A DNA stretch of 64,000 bases, taken from the NCBI GenBank assembly GCA_023247085.1, contig JAHFHC010000003.1, positions 3,407 through 67,406 on the forward strand, written 5' to 3'. Numbering within the stretch: position 1 is the stretch's first letter; each line of letters begins with the position of its first letter. Below, in pieces: positions 3,189 to 64,000 of this stretch. The translations under genes were made by a program, and so were the position numbers. The notes under the pieces are model-generated. The model had not been told where the DNA came from and made no database searches. It worked only from the letters and a program-made list of their open reading frames with translations. This DNA comes from Candidatus Micrarchaeota archaeon. GTDB taxonomy: Archaea; Micrarchaeota; Micrarchaeia; Norongarragalinales; UBA8480.

Positions 3189-3578
3189 TTGCAGATCAAA
3201 ATGACAAGTTTATCACCATCTCAAATGGCAAAAATGAAAATTGGACTAGTGGAAAAGAAAGCCGCACCTAAACCGGAAGAGGACGTAGTTGTCATGCCTG
3301 CTTTCGTGCCAACTAAGATGAACAAAGGAGAAGGAATTCTCGAAGTTACAACTCGTCAAAAATACTTAAATGAAGGATACGCAGACTGGATTAACTGGCA
3401 CCTATACCGCATAATTGGAATAGGCTCAGCAGTTGCTGCTTTGTTTTTAATTGGAATAAACTTGTGGCTAGCTGCTGGCGCAGGAGCTATAGCCGGACAT
3501 TTTTATTCAGAACACGTTAGAATCGCAAAGAAAATCGCAGTAAACTACTCAAGGAGAAGGCTCCTATACACAAGGTAA
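3189..3578 (+). CDS. Small membrane protein (soluble N-domain plus one C-terminal TM helix), member 1 of tandem array
   Basis: ORF with one hydrophobic helix (IIGIGSAVAALFLIGINLWLAAGAGAIAG). It is co-directional and tightly spaced with the next five ORFs. Confidence 0.3.
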   Translation: MQIKMTSLSPSQMAKMKIGLVEKKAAPKPEEDVVVMPAFVPTKMNKGEGILEVTTRQKYLNEGYADWINWHLYRIIGIGSAVAALFLIGINLWLAAGAGAIAGHFYSEHVRIAKKIAVNYSRRRLLYTR

Positions 3579-5532: not shown

Positions 5533-7125
5533 GTGAAGCGCAACTTTATTTTCGTTACTGGCGGCGTACTATCCTCCCTAGGTAAAGGCATACTTGCATC
5601 ATCTATTGGAAAAATCCTAAAGGACAAAGATGAACACAACGTTTCACTAATGAAAATAGACCCTTACCTCAATTGCGATGCAGGCACATTGAACCCATTT
5701 GAACATGGGGAAGTCTTTGTAACACGCGATGGACAAGAATGCGATTTAGACCTAGGCAATTACGAACGCTTTTTGAACACTTTTGCAATTAACGAACAAA
5801 ACTTAATGATGGGAGACGTTTACCGCGAACTTGTTGAAAAAGAACGACGCGGAGACTATCTTGGCAAAACCGTACAATTGATTCCACACGCTACAAATGA
5901 AATCAAAAAACGAATACGCGCATGCGGTGAAAAAACCAAGTGCGATACGCTGATAATAGAAATAGGCGGCACAGTAGGGGATATCGAAAGTGAAGTGGTA
6001 TTAGAAGCGAGTAGACAAATGAAATACGAAGAAGGCAACAACGTGCTATTCATTCACTTAGCGCTACTGCCCACTATTCTAACTGGCGAAGAAAAAACTA
6101 AGCCAATGCAACACTCAGTAAAGGCATTACAAGCAAGAGGCATTACCCCCGACCTATTAATAGGAAGAACAAGCGACAGCATGGCTGCAGAGTCAAGGTC
6201 AAAACTAGCATTGCAATGCAACGTAAACGCAAGCGATATTTACTATTCACCAAACGCACCAACCATTTACAAATTGCCACTCTTATTGGAAAAACAAGGA
6301 ATCGATAAAGCAATTGGCAATAAACTGGGATTTGAAATTCTAAATGGCGAAACATTTGAACAATGGAAAAAACTAGTTGACCAACTAGAATCAGCCTCTG
6401 ACGAAGTAAATATAGCTGTAATCGGCAAATATGCAACTAGTAAAGATGCTTACATGAGTTTATTCGAAGCGCTTACACACGCGGGAGTTGCAAATAAAGT
6501 TAAAATTAAAGCGGATTTAATTGACGCAACAAAAATAGAAAAGGAAAGCGTTAAACTCAATGATTATCACGGCGTAGTGATTCCAGGCGGATACGGCAGC
6601 CGCGCAGTTGAAGGCAAAATAAAAGCAATTCAACACAGCCGCGAAAATAACGTTCCTTTGCTCGGAATTTGTTACGGCTTTCAACTATCTATAGTTGAAA
6701 TTGCACGAAACATACTTGGCTGGACGGATGCCAATACAACTGAAATCATCCCAGATACAAAACACCCCGTTATTGACTTGTTACCTGAACAAAAACAAGT
6801 CAAGGATAAAGGCGCAACCAACAGGCTCGGCGCAAAGAAAACACTAATCGAAAAAGAAACAATGGCATTTGCAATGTACAAACAAGAAAACATACTAAAG
6901 CGATTCCGTCACAGGTGGGAAATGAACCCAGAATATGTTCAAGTGATGCAAGATGCAGGAGTGGTTTTTTCTGGAGTTGATGAAAGTAAAACTATTAAAA
7001 AAGTGCTTGAATTGAAAAATCACCCGTTCTTCTTTGGAGTACAATATCACCCAGAATTCGACTCTCGATTAGAAAAACCAGAAGAATCTTTTACAAAGCT
7101 AATTGAGGCGAGCAAAAAATGCTAA
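5533..7125 (+). CDS. pyrG: CTP synthase
   Basis: The N-terminus KRNFIFVTGGVLSSLGKGILASSIGKIL and the glutamine amidotransferase domain with LLGICYGFQL...H are present. Length is 530 aa. GTG start. Confidence 0.9.
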   Translation: MKRNFIFVTGGVLSSLGKGILASSIGKILKDKDEHNVSLMKIDPYLNCDAGTLNPFEHGEVFVTRDGQECDLDLGNYERFLNTFAINEQNLMMGDVYRELVEKERRGDYLGKTVQLIPHATNEIKKRIRACGEKTKCDTLIIEIGGTVGDIESEVVLEASRQMKYEEGNNVLFIHLALLPTILTGEEKTKPMQHSVKALQARGITPDLLIGRTSDSMAAESRSKLALQCNVNASDIYYSPNAPTIYKLPLLLEKQGIDKAIGNKLGFEILNGETFEQWKKLVDQLESASDEVNIAVIGKYATSKDAYMSLFEALTHAGVANKVKIKADLIDATKIEKESVKLNDYHGVVIPGGYGSRAVEGKIKAIQHSRENNVPLLGICYGFQLSIVEIARNILGWTDANTTEIIPDTKHPVIDLLPEQKQVKDKGATNRLGAKKTLIEKETMAFAMYKQENILKRFRHRWEMNPEYVQVMQDAGVVFSGVDESKTIKKVLELKNHPFFFGVQYHPEFDSRLEKPEESFTKLIEASKKC

Positions 7126-29492: not shown

Positions 29493-30071
29493 TTAGTATT
29501 CGTTTTCATCGCGCTTTGGGGCTTTTGTAAACAAGTAGTATTTGCTGTCTCCCCGCATTTCTTCAATTACTCGTTGAGTGAAAACTTCGTCAATGCTAGT
29601 TACGTGTGCTACGCGTGAATGGAAATCTGCAAAACTTGCAAATGGTTTTTCAGTTCTACTGGCGATAATAGCATCCAAGTGCTTTTTGCCAATTCCAGGT
29701 AATAATTCCAGCATGTGGCTGCGTATGCTAATTGGGCCAGCGCGGTTGAGAAATGCGACGAATTCCGGTTCCCTTGCTAATACTATTGTGTGAACTGAGT
29801 CGTGTAAATAGTTTTGGCTTCCGGTTGTTAAATCCGCGTAAGTGATTCTTCCTTTAATGTGGTCAACTTCTTTGCGCTCTTCTTTACCAATATAAGTGCG
29901 TTGTCCGCGGCTAAGTGAAGTTCCTGGCCGAGTGACGATTTCGAGTAGAGTAAAGTTAAGCTCTCCAAGTACTTGTGCAACTGGTTCCTTCGTTGCTTCG
30001 CTTGATTTGCCGTGGGGCAAAAAGTCCAACACGATTACAAATTCTTCTTTCCTTGGAAACATATTCGACAC
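29493..30071 (-). CDS. DUF655-family putative nucleic-acid-binding protein (OB fold + HhH)
   Basis: The N-terminus EEFVIVLDFLPHGKS and HhH-like LLPGIGKKHLDAIIASR are present. The conserved neighbourhood is rpl21e-rpoF-DUF655. Confidence 0.5.
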   Translation of the reverse strand: MSNMFPRKEEFVIVLDFLPHGKSSEATKEPVAQVLGELNFTLLEIVTRPGTSLSRGQRTYIGKEERKEVDHIKGRITYADLTTGSQNYLHDSVHTIVLAREPEFVAFLNRAGPISIRSHMLELLPGIGKKHLDAIIASRTEKPFASFADFHSRVAHVTSIDEVFTQRVIEEMRGDSKYYLFTKAPKRDENEY

Positions 30072-30126: not shown

Positions 30127-30588
30127 TCACTCTGTTTTTTCGTCTGTTGTATCTTCAGCGGCATCTGCGGTTTTTTGTTTTTCGCTTTCGCCATCTGCAT
30201 CTTGTGGTTTTTCAACTTCTTTTGGAGCAGGTTCAACTTTCTTAGTTTTAGCTGGTTCCTTTGCGTCTTTCTTGTAACTCTTTACAATTTCAAATGCTTT
30301 TTTCAATACGCTGTCTTCAATAGCCCCGCTTCCTGCAAGTACGATTTTCAATTCTTCTTCCTTTTTCGGCAATAAATCAGTTGCTTTAACCGCCTGCCAT
30401 TCAGTAAACCCAATTCCTTTTAGTTCCTTCACCATTTTGTCGCTGTCTTTGTCATCTAGTTTAACTAAATCTTCCAAGTAATTCAATGTATTTTGTTGTT
30501 CGTATGAAAGATTGCCTTGTTTTTGACGGTCTTTCAAAAGTCCGTGTGCTTCATTTACTGTGATTATGCGTTCAGTAGTTACTTGCAT
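30127..30588 (-). CDS. rpoF: RNA polymerase subunit F (Rpo4/RPB4 homologue) with K/E-rich C-terminal tail
   Basis: ITVNEAHGLLKDRQ...LNYLEDLVKLDDKDSDKMVKELKGIGFTEWQAVKATDLLP is the Rpo4 HRDC-like pattern. Its position between rpl21e and DUF655 matches the conserved archaeal synteny. Confidence 0.5.
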   Translation of the reverse strand: MQVTTERIITVNEAHGLLKDRQKQGNLSYEQQNTLNYLEDLVKLDDKDSDKMVKELKGIGFTEWQAVKATDLLPKKEEELKIVLAGSGAIEDSVLKKAFEIVKSYKKDAKEPAKTKKVEPAPKEVEKPQDADGESEKQKTADAAEDTTDEKTE

Positions 30589-30612: not shown

Positions 30613-30927
30613 TCAAATTGTTTCCAAATGAATTGGCGCAACAACCAGTCGTTTAACTGCATTTAAGTCGCGAAATTCAATTATGTAGCCTTTACCTTGT
30701 CTTGCAATTACTTTAGCGGTTCTGCCATTAAACCTAAGTGGCAAAGCTCCCTTGCTGCCGTCTACGCGAAGCCTAACTCCTGATCCGATCTCGAAAGTGC
30801 GGAGCATTGTAGTTATGCCTCTACGCTTCTTTGTAATTTTGCGGCTGCGCTTAGAATAAAATCCATGACTACGTTTCATTTTGTTCAATAACACCTTTTT
30901 TTCAAGAAGTAGTGAGGAAATAGACAC
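30613..30927 (-). CDS. rpl21e: 50S ribosomal protein L21e
   Basis: MKRSHGFYSKRSRKITKKRRG...VRLRVDGSK...GRTAKVIARQGKGYIIE. Confidence 0.75.
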   Translation of the reverse strand: MSISSLLLEKKVLLNKMKRSHGFYSKRSRKITKKRRGITTMLRTFEIGSGVRLRVDGSKGALPLRFNGRTAKVIARQGKGYIIEFRDLNAVKRLVVAPIHLETI

Positions 30928-31047: not shown

Positions 31048-31377
31048 ATGAGTGGAGCTTCTGCGGGTACTGATCCTGTAAATATTATGCTTGGCTTTTT
31101 AGTATTCATCGCAGTTTTAACCGAATTGCATGGCTATTCAGTTGGCTCTGCTATATTCGCATTACCCATTATAATTTTTAGTAGCTTGCTATTATTTTTA
31201 TCCCACTTGCTTGGGCTATTAACTGGATTTTTCATAAACGGGCTATCTGGTGGCATATTTGGCTTGCTATTGCTTGGAATTGCATTAGTGTGGACGCGAA
31301 AATCACTAGTTGGTTTCTCAGCAGCTAATTTTATGCTAATAGCCATATTCTTGGTAATGGTACTGTTAGTAGTTTAA
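31048..31377 (+). CDS. Small polytopic membrane protein
   Basis: 109 aa, almost entirely hydrophobic helices. Confidence 0.3.
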   Translation: MSGASAGTDPVNIMLGFLVFIAVLTELHGYSVGSAIFALPIIIFSSLLLFLSHLLGLLTGFFINGLSGGIFGLLLLGIALVWTRKSLVGFSAANFMLIAIFLVMVLLVV

Positions 31378-31456
31378 AGCCGGTCTCGGCGAAATGCTTT
31401 TATACCCCCTTTAAATACTCTTACTTACTTATTTTAGAAAAAGGTGTTAAAATTAT

Positions 31457-31765
31457 ATGGCAGCTAAAAAACCACTACCTAGGATAAATATGTCTTTTAA
31501 AGTGGAAAACATAGTCGCTTCGGCGAACCTCAATGTGGAACTTGATCTCTTCAATATTGCTATGGAAGTTGACAACGTTGAATATGAACCAGAACAATTC
31601 CCCGGCGCAATCATGAGATTAAAGGAACTTGGTACAACTTTGCTGTTGTTCAAGAATGGCAAAGTCATATGTTCTGGTGCAAAAAGCGAAAAACAAATCG
31701 CACAAAGCATTAAACGCGCAGTTGAACTACTAAGAAAATACATGATGGCCAGACCATCTGCATAA
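31457..31765 (+). CDS. tbp: TATA-binding protein consisting of a single TBP repeat (half-TBP, 102 aa)
   Basis: ENIVASANLNVELDLFNIAMEVDNVEYEPEQFPGAIMRLKELGTTLLLFKNGKVICSGAKSEKQIAQ is an unmistakable TBP repeat. The ORF stops after one repeat and no second repeat is encoded downstream in any frame. Confidence 0.7.
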   Translation: MAAKKPLPRINMSFKVENIVASANLNVELDLFNIAMEVDNVEYEPEQFPGAIMRLKELGTTLLLFKNGKVICSGAKSEKQIAQSIKRAVELLRKYMMARPSA

Positions 31766-31840
31766 AGTTCAAAAATCGGTTTTCGTACTTTTTTATTTTA
31801 CTTCTTTTTTAATTATATTTTTTTAACGAAGGTAGCGTAG

Positions 31841-31850
31841 CCTATAAAAG
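31841..31850 (+). promoter_or_regulatory. TATA-box-like element
   Basis: CCTATAAAAG lies 23-30 nt upstream of the ATG at 31873 of a small reading frame. Confidence 0.3.
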
Positions 31851-32303
31851 AGTTGTTGGATTAATTGTGGTTATGGCCGCGAATCAACGAAACGTAATTC
31901 AAGTTACATTTAAGCCACTTGAACCAAAGCGTTTAGTAATTAAGCACTAGGATTTGCATCCCGAAGTAAAACAAAAAGTCAAAGAACTACTAGCTGCAAG
32001 GAAAAAACGAATAAATAGCCTGACAAAAGCACAACAAACGTTTCTAAAACACGTTGTCCCCGGAAGATACCGCGCACATTTATAACTTCCGAAAAAAAGA
32101 GTTATTTTCTAGTTAATTTACTTCTTTCTTTTTCTTCCCATCTTTCTATTCTTTTTCTGCCTAATTCTTTCCACTGTTTATATTTGCAGTCATAGCTTTT
32201 TTGTTATTCTTACTATTTTAGGTAAGTACTTTCTAAGCAAATCGAAGTTCCTGAAACTTGTTAAAACTCCCTTGATTCCCATTTCAATTGAAGCGCGGTA
32301 ACG

Positions 32304-32313
32304 TTTTTATACT
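32304..32313 (+). promoter_or_regulatory. TATA-box-like element upstream of 5S rRNA
   Basis: TTTTTATACT lies ~25 nt upstream of the 5S 5' end. Confidence 0.35.
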
Positions 32314-32334: not shown

Positions 32335-32450
32335 GATAGCGGCCATAGGAGAGTGGAAATACCCAGTCCCATTTCGAACCTGGAAGTCAAGCACTCTAAC
32401 GGCACTCCCAGTACTGTTGTGATCAACGGGAACAGAAGCTGCTGCTATCA
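32335..32450 (+). rRNA. rrf: 5S ribosomal RNA
   Basis: GATAGCGGCCATAGGAGAGTGGAAATACCCAGTCCCATTTCGAACCTGGAAGTCAAGCACTCTAACGGCACTCCCAGTACTG...GCTGCTATC. Helix I closes by 5'/3' complementarity (GATAGCGGC with GCUGCUAUC), and conserved loop C/E motifs are present (CCCAUUUCGAAC, AGUACUG). Confidence 0.7.
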
Positions 32451-37370: not shown

Positions 37371-37583
37371 TTACTGCCTCGCTGCGAGTTTAATGTCTTG
37401 TGCGGTTACTGTTTTTCTTCCTGCGTGTCGTGCAAGTTGAGCTGCTTTTTGTGCTAAGTCAAGTGCGTAGTTTTCAAGAACGTCTCCAAGTGCTTCAGCT
37501 GCATCTGGTGAGACTCGCTCCGCTCCTGCTTTTCTAATCAACCGTTCAACTGGTGCAACGGGTAGATTTGCTTTTGTTTCCAT
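37371..37583 (-). CDS. Archaeal histone (HMf-type)
   Basis: [62 protein letters not shown]. Confidence 0.7.
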
Positions 37584-59446: not shown

Positions 59447-59926
59447 TTACCAGTTAAAACTTTTTTCAATTGCTTTTTCTAACAATATTTTCAACACCAT
59501 TGCTTCATCTTCGCTTATTGGAATAGCTATTGACACAACTTGCCCTTTTTGATCTTGCGTTGACAGCTTAAAATAATACCCTGTTGCCATTTTTGAAAAG
59601 CTTACGGTTGAGTTCCGCGTATCTGCAGAAATAGCGTATCCCCCTTTTGACGGGTCGTGAAACAGTTCTGCGTTGGCAGCTTTGCCGCTTAATACAATTA
59701 GCAGTTTAGCCATGTCAACTATTGCCATTTTGAAAGTTAGTTTATCCGACCACCCGAATGCTTGTGGTCCAGTTTGCTTTGCTGCTTCAACAAAAACACT
59801 TTTCTTTTCTGCATTAAAGTCAAATTGAACTGCTGAACCTGTGCCGGTTTTGTTCGGCTTGTAAACTTTAAATTTGTTTTCGAATTTATTTTCAAATTTA
59901 CTTTCGCTTTTAGCTACATTGTCCAT
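59447..59926 (-). CDS. Hypothetical protein with possible Whirly/PC4-like ssDNA-binding fold
   Basis: KVYKPNKTGTGSAVQFDFNAEKKSVFVEAAKQTGPQAFGWSDKLTFKMAIVDMAKLL is reminiscent of the Whirly KGKAAL...F...W..K..F.L motif pattern. Confidence 0.25.
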   Translation of the reverse strand: MDNVAKSESKFENKFENKFKVYKPNKTGTGSAVQFDFNAEKKSVFVEAAKQTGPQAFGWSDKLTFKMAIVDMAKLLIVLSGKAANAELFHDPSKGGYAISADTRNSTVSFSKMATGYYFKLSTQDQKGQVVSIAIPISEDEAMVLKILLEKAIEKSFNW

Positions 59927-61268
59927 TTTGCATCACCAGGTTAATTGCGGTTGTAATTATTTGTTTTGCGTATTCTTTTGGAAAACGACTTGAAGACGCC
60001 ACGTCGTGGCCACCGCCTGTAAAACCGCTTTTGCCGTACGTTTCTTTCAAAGCTTTAATTACGAAATGAGCAGAGAAGCCAAGGTCAGCGGCACTGCGAT
60101 TTGCACGAAATGACAAGCTATCTCCAGTATAAACTAGGCTGGCTGTTGGGCCCTTTTCAGCGAAGTGGAATTGAAGTGCGTTGTGCAACTTGCTTATAGA
60201 CGGGTAGCTATTCTTTTTTGCAATGCCAGTTACATCGCAAGTTACTAGTGTATATTTGCCAGTGTATGTTTTTGCTTTGTGAATTGCCTTTTCTAATGCG
60301 CGTTGAGTTTTTAGCTTCTCTTCACGGTATAATTCACCAACTAAATGTTTGTCGCTAAGCGTCTTGTCGTAGAATTCCAGCGAATACGGGTCAATTGAAC
60401 TTACTGCTAAGTAATCTATGACAACTCCTTCTGGGAAAAATGTACTTTCACGAAATGAACTGGTGTCGGTTTGCATTGAATACCTGCAAAAGCGCAGAAA
60501 TTCTGGCTCTAATTCTGGGCAAATACGCCTAGCGATTTCAAATGCAAGTAAGCCAGTGTTGTAACTAGATGGTTCAATTGGGTTTTTCAATTGAAATGGG
60601 GAGACGAAATGGTCAATGCATGGCTCAATTGCTGGAGGGTGATGGTCAACTACCATTATCTCAAAGTTTTTTGCTGACCGACACAAGTTTTCCTTGCTTT
60701 CTTGGTTTGCTCCATGATCCAACAATACTAGGAGGCTGCCTTCTGCTAATCCCTTGTCTTCTTCACAATCTTTTTCACTGTAAACTGCACTATACGATTC
60801 TTGTGTGCGAAGCAAAAGCGGGACTTTCTTGTCTTTAGCAAATTTTTCAAGGCATTTTTTCAAAATAATGCCAGAGGAGATGCCATCGCCGTCTCCATCG
60901 TAGCGGATCTTAATTGTGCGCAGCTCCAACACTGCTTTTGTAAGCGTAACTGCCGCGTCGTTAAATAGTTCTTTCATCTCAATTAACAACGGTGCCTTGA
61001 CGACTTCCTTAACTGTAGCTGGTTGAAAAAATAGGAATTGTTTTACTGATGCTTCGAGTTTCTTGTCAGTTTTTTGTTCTGCGGCTTCAACTCTAAAAGT
61101 GTAGTTAGTATATTTGCCAATTAATTCGTATATTTTTTCTGGCTTTAACTCGCATTCGCTTTTTATAACTATAAATTCTTGGCCATTGCAGCCATAGTAC
61201 TTTTCAGGGTCAAAAACGTCTTTTTTAACTATATATAGGGTGGTTTTCATGGGGGCGTATAGCACCAA
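59910..61268 (-). CDS. DHH-family phosphoesterase (second RecJ-like paralogue) with N-terminal OB-like domain
   Basis: KIRYDGDGDGISSGIIL, LLVLLDHGAN and EIMVVDHHPP are the DHH motifs. DHHA1-like GGGH lies near the C-terminus. Confidence 0.5.
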   Translation of the reverse strand: MVLYAPMKTTLYIVKKDVFDPEKYYGCNGQEFIVIKSECELKPEKIYELIGKYTNYTFRVEAAEQKTDKKLEASVKQFLFFQPATVKEVVKAPLLIEMKELFNDAAVTLTKAVLELRTIKIRYDGDGDGISSGIILKKCLEKFAKDKKVPLLLRTQESYSAVYSEKDCEEDKGLAEGSLLVLLDHGANQESKENLCRSAKNFEIMVVDHHPPAIEPCIDHFVSPFQLKNPIEPSSYNTGLLAFEIARRICPELEPEFLRFCRYSMQTDTSSFRESTFFPEGVVIDYLAVSSIDPYSLEFYDKTLSDKHLVGELYREEKLKTQRALEKAIHKAKTYTGKYTLVTCDVTGIAKKNSYPSISKLHNALQFHFAEKGPTASLVYTGDSLSFRANRSAADLGFSAHFVIKALKETYGKSGFTGGGHDVASSSRFPKEYAKQIITTAINLVMQNGQCS

Positions 61269-61332
61269 CGCGGTTTATAAATTTTGAAGTAACTGTTAAT
61301 TATCAATTATTTTAGCGAGGTTTTACTATTAA

Positions 61333-61590
61333 ATGGATGCAATTATTGAAAACTACAGGCGAGGACGACACACTGAATACGGCGACCAGTTTATAGTTGT
61401 CGTTGACGCATGCGAATCAAGCGAAAAGGCAAAAGCTTTTGTAGGTAAATCAGTTTCTTGGAAAACTCCTTCTGGCAAGGAAATCAAAGGCAAAGTAGCT
61501 TCTACTCATGGCAACAGCGGTAAACTCCGTGTTGTAATGGAAAAAGGGTTACCTGGCCAAGCAGTTGGTACCAAAATTGAAATCGCTTAA
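61333..61590 (+). CDS. rpl35ae: 50S ribosomal protein L35Ae
   Basis: YRRGRHTEYGDQFIVVVD...FVGKSVSWKTPSGKEIKGKVASTHGNSGKLRVVMEKGLPGQAVG. Confidence 0.7.
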   Translation: MDAIIENYRRGRHTEYGDQFIVVVDACESSEKAKAFVGKSVSWKTPSGKEIKGKVASTHGNSGKLRVVMEKGLPGQAVGTKIEIA

Positions 61591-63666: not shown

Positions 63667-64000
63667 CTAGATGCTTACTTTTAACCCAAGTGCTTTCTTT
63701 AGCTCGCGGTATCGATTGCGTATTGTAACTTCAGTTACGCCAGCTACATCTGCAACTTCTTTTTGTGTCCTGCGTTCACCAGTCATTACACTTGCAATGT
63801 AAACTGTTGCAGCTGCGACTCCCATTGGGCCACGTCCGCTGATTAAACCGCGTTTTAATGCCTCGTCTAGGATTTCAATTGCTTTTGTCTGCGTGTCTCC
63901 ACTTAATTTAAGTGCAGTGACGAAACGGTTGATGTAAAAACGCGGGTTCGTTAATGGTACCTTGAGTTCCAATTCTTGTGTAATCAAACGGTATGTGCGG
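63667..64000 (-). CDS. tfb: Transcription initiation factor TFB (TFIIB homologue), C-terminal cyclin repeat only; 5' end beyond window
   Basis: [81 protein letters not shown] is the last TFIIB cyclin-fold repeat. The ORF stays open to the window edge. Confidence 0.65.

Follow-up and report, generated by a model that had tools for sequence, protein, structure and literature searches.

The window analysed here, a 64-kb stretch of DNA from a Candidatus Micrarchaeota archaeon, contains at positions 31457-31765 (+) an ORF running from ATG to TAA that encodes a 102-aa protein with only one repeat of the TATA-binding protein (TBP). The protein consists of a Lys/Arg-rich N-tail (aa 1-12), one complete TBP repeat (aa 13-95, with the order S1-H1-S2-S3-S4-S5-H2) and a 7-aa C-tail. 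Several plausible expression signals can be read directly from the sequence, although their function is inferred. A putative promoter at 31390-31417 (+), 40-67 nt upstream of the ATG, comprises a BRE-like CGAAA (31390-31394), a TATA-like TTTTATA (31398-31404), separated from the former by TGC, and a second TATA-like TTTAAATA (31410-31417). A Shine-Dalgarno-like AAAGGTG (31440-31446, +), whose GGTG (31443-31446) lies 10 nt before the ATG, supports 31457 as the start codon, so that the basic tail is translated. The stop is followed by a T-rich stretch with runs of 4-7 T (31780-31825, +), which is the typical look of an archaeal intrinsic terminator.

The gene lies divergent from an operon formed by the ribosomal protein L21e (30613-30927, -; Pfam PF01157), whose real start codon is probably downstream of the listed GTG, the RNA polymerase subunit Rpo4/RpoF (Rpb4-like; 30127-30588, -; PF03874, E 3.3e-5, just below the gathering score) and a DUF655 protein (29493-30071, -; PF04919, E 4.7e-54). 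Between L21e and the half-size TBP there is a 109-aa hydrophobic ORF (31048-31377, +) with no Pfam match, which is poorly conserved, being found in only 5 related loci. At the right edge of the window, running off its end, lies the C-terminal part of a TFB (TFIIB) gene (63682-63999, -), the expected partner of TBP in initiation, as identified by tblastn with a TFB from one of the other loci (L043; 53% identity, E 1e-32) and by the Pfam TFIIB repeat (E 3.1e-25). TATA-like heptamers occur in the window at 0.57 per 70 nt upstream of genes, against 0.05 in coding DNA, i.e. they are about 11x denser upstream of genes.

An earlier note on this sequence had described a single, very well conserved TBP repeat followed by a stop, with no second repeat downstream in any frame, and this observation is confirmed. 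The Pfam TBP model (PF00352) matches once, at aa 13-95, covering the whole model (1-85 of 85 positions) with E 9.2e-29 and 99.6 bits against a cut-off of 22.9. In contrast, the NCBIfam whole-TBP equivalog and subfamily models match at only 59-89 bits against curated cut-offs of 181-347, and the match falls on either their N or their C half; hence, this is half a TBP. Both repeats of solved archaeal TBPs align to the single repeat with similar scores (73/61 bits for 1mp9, 64/65 for 2z8u and 52/68 for 1pcz). A tblastn search of the repeat against all six frames of the 64-kb window gives only the self hit, the next best having E = 1.5, and a profile search with filters off on the six-frame translation of 1.5 kb on either side, in the window and in 43 related loci, found nothing better than E = 2.7. 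The protein therefore belongs to the TBP family by sequence, but lacks the two tandem repeats in one polypeptide that form the pseudo-symmetric saddle of canonical archaeal and eukaryal TBPs.

A scan of one genome per species revealed the same single-repeat gene (91-119 aa, 79-93% identical) in 40 loci of 39 species-level Micrarchaeota assemblies, one of them on a 1.30-Mb contig (JBAZVF010000001.1); other half-bearing assemblies include JACRGC01, JAHJQN01 and JACQQD01. In every one of these loci the ORF starts with a Lys/Arg-rich tail of variable length and stops just after helix 2, with TAA, TAG or TGA depending on the species. In the protein collection we found at least 80 clusters (at 90% identity) of 92-116-aa single-repeat proteins that are 80-95% identical to the query, labeled Micrarchaeota, Micrarchaeia or Norongarragalinales and located on contigs up to 452 kb, as well as two-repeat TBPs of 170-179 aa at 53-64% identity. 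One member, LFW-156_1 (CABMDW01), is classified in GTDB as Micrarchaeota, order UBA8480 (Ca. Norongarragalinales), with a genome of 0.93 Mb that is about 90% complete (PMC8561730). An identical 1,100-bp contig is also present in the assembly of SRA run SRR14366766, but since it may come from the same sample as the window it is not counted as independent support. No hits were obtained in viral contigs, and a viral or mobile origin is rejected.

Over 80 core codons in 41 species, amino-acid identity averages 90.8%, whereas nucleotide identity is 87% at first, 93% at second and only 47.8% at third codon positions; of 56 invariant residues 55 are encoded by more than one codon, and the loci span 34-61% GC. 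This is the signature of a translated gene under very strong purifying selection. The earlier note had named a frameshift restoring a second repeat as one outcome that would overturn its view. The short length, and the fact that NCBI's pipeline labels family members 'hypothetical protein', are all that speaks for an artefact or a pseudogene, and this possibility is refuted by the occurrence of the same architecture in 40 independent loci with different stop codons, by the absence of any repeat remnant within 1.5 kb in any frame, by the codon pattern and by the conserved synteny.

Concerning genomic context, L21e lies next to the half-TBP in 35 of the 43 related loci, while RpoF is syntenic in 36 and DUF655 in 34, and the divergent arrangement holds in 36 of the 40 half-TBP loci. 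Two-repeat TBPs of five related DPANN lineages occupy exactly this slot, divergent from L21e-Rpb4-DUF655(-KsgA). In our numbering of the TBP proteins these are P0012, from an Iainarchaeum MAG, P0040, P0030, P0057 and P0144, the last from a MAG labeled Anstonellaceae, another Micrarchaeota family. Two further two-repeat lineages (P0017 and P0020) show a different context. The half-TBP is therefore the positional orthologue of the canonical TBP and, because two-repeat TBP is universal in Archaea and Eukarya and is present at this locus in sister groups, it is a secondary truncation and not a surviving ancestor. Half-bearing genomes are closer to one another (neighbour proteins 39-87% identical) than to any two-repeat lineage (34-39%), which fits a single origin.

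The half-TBP is also unusually constrained. Identity to the window's proteins has a median of 85% for the half-TBP, against 42% for L21e, 41% for RpoF and 52% for DUF655 in the same genomes. Pairwise, half-TBPs are 82-84% identical where the neighbouring genes are 40-50% identical, whereas two-repeat TBP pairs are 52-67% identical at neighbour identity 38-40%, and 76% at 50%; this suggests an evolution about twice as slow as that of the two-repeat relatives, although the comparison rests on just six two-repeat pairs. In a bootstrapped NJ tree on 76 columns the halves form a tight, short-branched clade with a 92% split.

Residues N18 and V20, the stirrup E42-Y-E-P-E-Q-F48-P-G50, F65 and S73 are invariant in 31 family members. 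They correspond to the S1 Asn/Val, the two DNA-kinking phenylalanines (F48 and F65) and the TFB-binding stirrup of TBP-DNA and TBP-TFB complexes. The AF2 model of the monomer (pLDDT 87, pTM 0.77) shows the S1-H1-S2-S3-S4-S5-H2 order of the TBP repeat, and this predicted structure superposes on repeats of 1mp9 and 2z8u at an rmsd of 0.9-1.1 Å over 75-82 residues (Foldseek probability 1.00).

In order to establish which repeat survived, the half was compared with the N and C repeats of two-repeat TBPs. The closest two-repeat TBPs have unusually similar internal repeats, 50-69% identical against 45-52% in reference archaeal TBPs, and the half is equidistant from both, at 63%/63% for the two-repeat TBP P0001. 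The NJ tree does not nest the halves within either the N or the C repeats. At positions that distinguish the two repeats the half is N-like at 7 and C-like at 8, with no 5'/3' partition, so that there is no support for a chimeric repeat made by recombination between repeats, and the comparison with the N repeat and with the linker plus C repeat of the Micrarchaeota TBP P0144 is a tie (34/55 against 34-36/59). The basic N-tail resembles the basic inter-repeat linker, but this is low-complexity similarity. The mosaic character fits a chain that must play both roles, and does not correspond to the N- or C-specific fragment expected from gene fission.

Such a fission, in which the half pairs with a second, more divergent single-repeat protein encoded elsewhere to give a heterodimer with an asymmetric saddle, would resemble the split genes of other DPANN archaea and is considered unlikely. 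In its favour, the closed genome of Mia14 (CP019964), a Micrarchaeon of another order, is tabulated with two arCOG01764 (TBP) proteins, whereas 13 of the 15 DPANN genomes compared have one (PMC5498576), which means that second TBP-family genes do occur in the phylum; moreover, several distinct single-repeat TBP lineages exist in metagenomes. The supplements of other Micrarchaeota and DPANN genome papers (PMC8407392, PMC8975820 and PMC8561730) yielded no per-genome TBP data. Against it stand the lack of specialization towards either lobe and the slow evolution, since a subunit relieved of half its duties would be expected to do the opposite. None of the other half-size types was found in the same assemblies by the species-level scan, which used peptide patterns specific to this protein, and no other TBP-domain cluster shares a longest contig with a half-bearing contig, including contigs of 452, 362, 270 and 173 kb.

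An accessory role, proposed in the earlier note as a decoy or regulatory paralogue with a full TBP elsewhere, is likewise unlikely, though not excluded. In this view the half might cap TBP or TFB, or act as an alternative promoter factor like Halobacterium TbpA. It is supported by the fact that the single-domain TBP proteins described so far all coexist with full TBPs, and that some MAGs labeled Micrarchaeota do encode two-repeat TBPs (P0038, P0277 and P0144). However, the half occupies the very locus where relatives keep their canonical TBP, so that a full TBP, if it existed, would have to be the relocated copy; it is one of the most conserved proteins in its neighbourhood; the assemblies carrying two-repeat TBPs (JAGVWE, DUGH, CAYJVY, CAZHHL and JAWAAM) are different from the 39 half-bearing ones; and DPANN genomes usually have a single TBP. 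No second TBP-type gene was seen within ±10 kb of any locus, no two TBP clusters share a longest contig, and NCBI accessions and locus-tag adjacency gave no links. It should be noted that these negatives are weak with respect to whole genomes, since the species-level scan used peptide patterns specific to this protein and would have missed a divergent TBP-domain gene, and since the comparison took in only 120 of the 7,836 hits of the two-repeat profile search. Hence, a split partner or a full-length copy elsewhere remains possible.

Taken together, the reading we favour, with moderate confidence, is that in a clade of Micrarchaeota (Norongarragalinales/UBA8480-type genomes) the canonical two-repeat TBP gene lost one repeat, and that the surviving ~100-aa protein is still the cell's general TATA-binding factor, acting as a symmetric homodimer. 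What the data demonstrate is the single-repeat architecture, its conservation under purifying selection, the positional orthology with two-repeat TBPs, the retention of the contact residues and the TBP fold of the model, whereas homodimerisation, the binding and bending of TATA DNA, the recruitment of TFB and RNAP, and the status of sole TBP in the cell are inferred. The TFB gene in the window and the TATA-like elements enriched upstream of genes give only indirect support for a role in initiation. In the proposed mechanism two identical chains would pair through their S1 strands to rebuild the ten-stranded saddle, each contributing one pair of DNA-kinking phenylalanines and one stirrup. Such a dimer would be perfectly symmetric and could not read promoter polarity, so that TFB binding to one stirrup and to the BRE would set the direction of transcription, as is already the rule in archaea (reportedly Bell et al. 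1999). The Lys/Arg-rich tail probably adds non-specific DNA affinity or stabilises the dimer, and the extra constraint would arise because one sequence must serve both lobes. The interpretation given in the earlier note is thus partly supported: its homodimer saddle is plausible, given the invariant contact residues, the mosaic N/C character, the slower evolution and the occupation of the canonical locus, and the protein does mimic the hypothetical pre-duplication state, but it is not a relic of it.

TBP is the textbook case of a pseudo-symmetric protein thought to descend from a homodimer by gene duplication and fusion, and no organism is known to run transcription with a one-repeat TBP. It is slightly more likely than not that in this whole clade the only TBP is a single-repeat chain working as a perfectly symmetric homodimer, with polarity read entirely by TFB/BRE, which would be a natural reversion to the architecture postulated for the pre-duplication ancestor. 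If so, the homodimeric state would be shown to be viable in a living cell, and the family would provide a natural system for asking what the asymmetry of normal TBP is for (orientation on TATA boxes, use of one or two TFB-binding stirrups, bidirectional promoters), as well as sequences for direct biochemical and structural tests. On the practical side, since these proteins score below the curated TBP thresholds and are annotated 'hypothetical protein', automated surveys may wrongly report TBP as missing from these genomes.

Previously described single-TBP-domain proteins fall into two groups (Brindefalk et al. 2013, PMC3597702), and full-text searches, which do not cover subscription-only papers, found no other prior description and none of the present family. 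Halobacterium TbpA and other halobacterial proteins are, like the present one, a single repeat that still clusters with bona fide TBP repeats, but TbpA is very similar to full-length TBPs of the same species, coexists with them and is not essential, whereas the present family sits at the canonical locus and is conserved across at least 39 species whose neighbouring genes are only about 40-50% identical, no co-resident full TBP having been seen within the scope of the searches above. The Thermococcales monopartite proteins (e.g. P. furiosus NP_578195, 96 aa) are similar in size (about 95 aa) and have a single TBP-like domain, but they are highly diverged from TBP, form a separate sequence cluster and always coexist with a full TBP, while the protein studied here is a close TBP homologue, about 61-63% identical to the repeats of DPANN TBPs.

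Half-size TBPs are rare: an exhaustive search of 1.84 billion representatives found 5,294 TBP-family clusters, of which only three of the best 150 are genuine single-repeat proteins, the whole present family collapsing into one representative. Other half-size lineages seen in DPANN metagenomes are the L042/L044 type (named after the loci) and proteins P0378 and P0383, the latter two with long basic N-tails. They are single-repeat proteins of 90-153 aa, close to DPANN TBP repeats and 60-66% identical to the window's protein, and several have Lys-rich tails. The L042 type lies at a different locus, between HerA and Rad50-like genes and near TFB, and none shows the conserved L21e synteny as far as could be seen, given that the two P0383-type contigs (P0383 and cluster member P0448) end just upstream of the gene. 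Repeat loss may therefore have happened more than once, and possibly independently, in DPANN archaea.

Compared with canonical archaeal TBPs (PF00352 x2, arCOG01764, KEGG K03120), such as those of Pyrococcus woesei (1PCZ/1AIS), Sulfolobus acidocaldarius (1MP9) and Methanocaldococcus jannaschii (2Z8U), the repeat is 38-45% identical to these solved proteins and retains the DNA-kinking Phe residues and the stirrup motif, with the same fold in the model, but differs in having one repeat per chain, a basic N-terminal tail and a characteristic turn. The S3-S4 turn of the present protein carries (I/L)GTT, and reads (I/L/M)GTT in 179 of 188 single-repeat proteins, whereas 298 of 302 repeats of two-repeat TBPs read xPKxx there, and P0378 and P0383 keep the DPK turn.

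A second half-size TBP type of 90-91 aa, 61-64% identical to the window's protein, occurs in MAGs labelled Iainarchaeum or 'archaeon', where it is found at positions 3215-3490 of locus L042, 6217-6492 of locus L043 and 6637-6909 of locus L044. In L043 it lies between a HerA-like and a Rad50/SbcC-like gene, with a TFB gene about 3 kb away, and it is not at the L21e locus. Its family includes the database protein P0138, on a 112-kb contig. Further single-repeat TBP lineages are represented by the proteins P0378 (109 aa) and P0383/P0448 (152-153 aa; locus L070 204-662 and locus L071 188-649), which have long basic N-extensions and keep the DPK turn. Both contigs carrying the P0383 type (56 kb and 202 kb, from different assemblies) end about 190 nt upstream of the gene, which suggests a repeat or rRNA-like element there.

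Concerning positions that characterize the half-size state, the S3-S4 turn (aa 57-61 of the window's ORF, nt 31625-31639) reads (I/L/M)GTT in 179 of 188 single-repeat TBPs, while it reads xPKxx in 298 of 302 repeats of two-repeat TBPs, a hallmark of the half-size state which the L042 type shares. The terminal tails also differ. Of 151 DPANN two-repeat TBPs (P0277, P0193, P0201 and others), 62 carry C-terminal tails longer than 20 aa that are 41% Lys+Arg, as for example in P0277 (249 aa), whereas the type-A halves, i.e. those of the window's family, instead carry a Lys/Arg-rich N-tail (median 14 aa, 34% K+R). Many archaeal TBPs have acidic tails, so basic tails look like a DPANN trait.

As for the number of TBP genes or repeats, one MAG (assembly JAZDKC01) carries two type-A half-TBP loci, L021 (645-938) and L030 (4101-4394). 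However, the L021 protein is identical to that of locus L022 (assembly JBDRLB01, same study), hence a mis-binned contig is more likely than a true paralogue. In the closed Micrarchaeota genome Mia14 two arCOG01764 (TBP) proteins are tabulated, whereas 13 of 15 DPANN genomes have one (PMC5498576, Supplementary Data 4). The database proteins P0299 (376 aa), P0305 (702 aa) and P0325 (329 aa) have four TBP repeats; P0299 is a eukaryote-like TBP core duplicated in tandem, which could be an assembly artefact or a real tandem fusion.

Within the window, a palindromic TATA-like TTTATAAATTTT at 61274-61285 sits in the 65-nt spacer between the divergent ORFs 59910-61268 (-) and 61333-61590 (+), and several other divergent gene pairs have spacers of only 59-105 nt. 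Such an element could, as a hypothesis from sequence alone, be a shared, symmetric TBP site for bidirectional initiation. A stand-alone 5S rRNA gene at 32335-32450 (+) (Rfam 78.8 bits) has TTTTTATA as putative promoter (32304-32311), ending 23 nt upstream of its 5' end, and no tRNA genes were found anywhere in the 64-kb window. The listed GTG start of the L21e ORF, 30613-30927 (-), lies only about 10 nt downstream of a TATA-like TTTTTATA, and the real start is probably the internal ATG (M17 of the listed translation). An archaeal histone gene (CBFD_NFYB_HMF, E 3.4e-18) is present at 37371-37583 (-), being 70-80% identical in the four related loci that have it. Finally, a 43-aa Lys-rich ORF at 31954-32085 (+) lies between the TBP gene and the 5S rRNA, preceded by a TATA-like CCTATAAAAG at 31842-31851.
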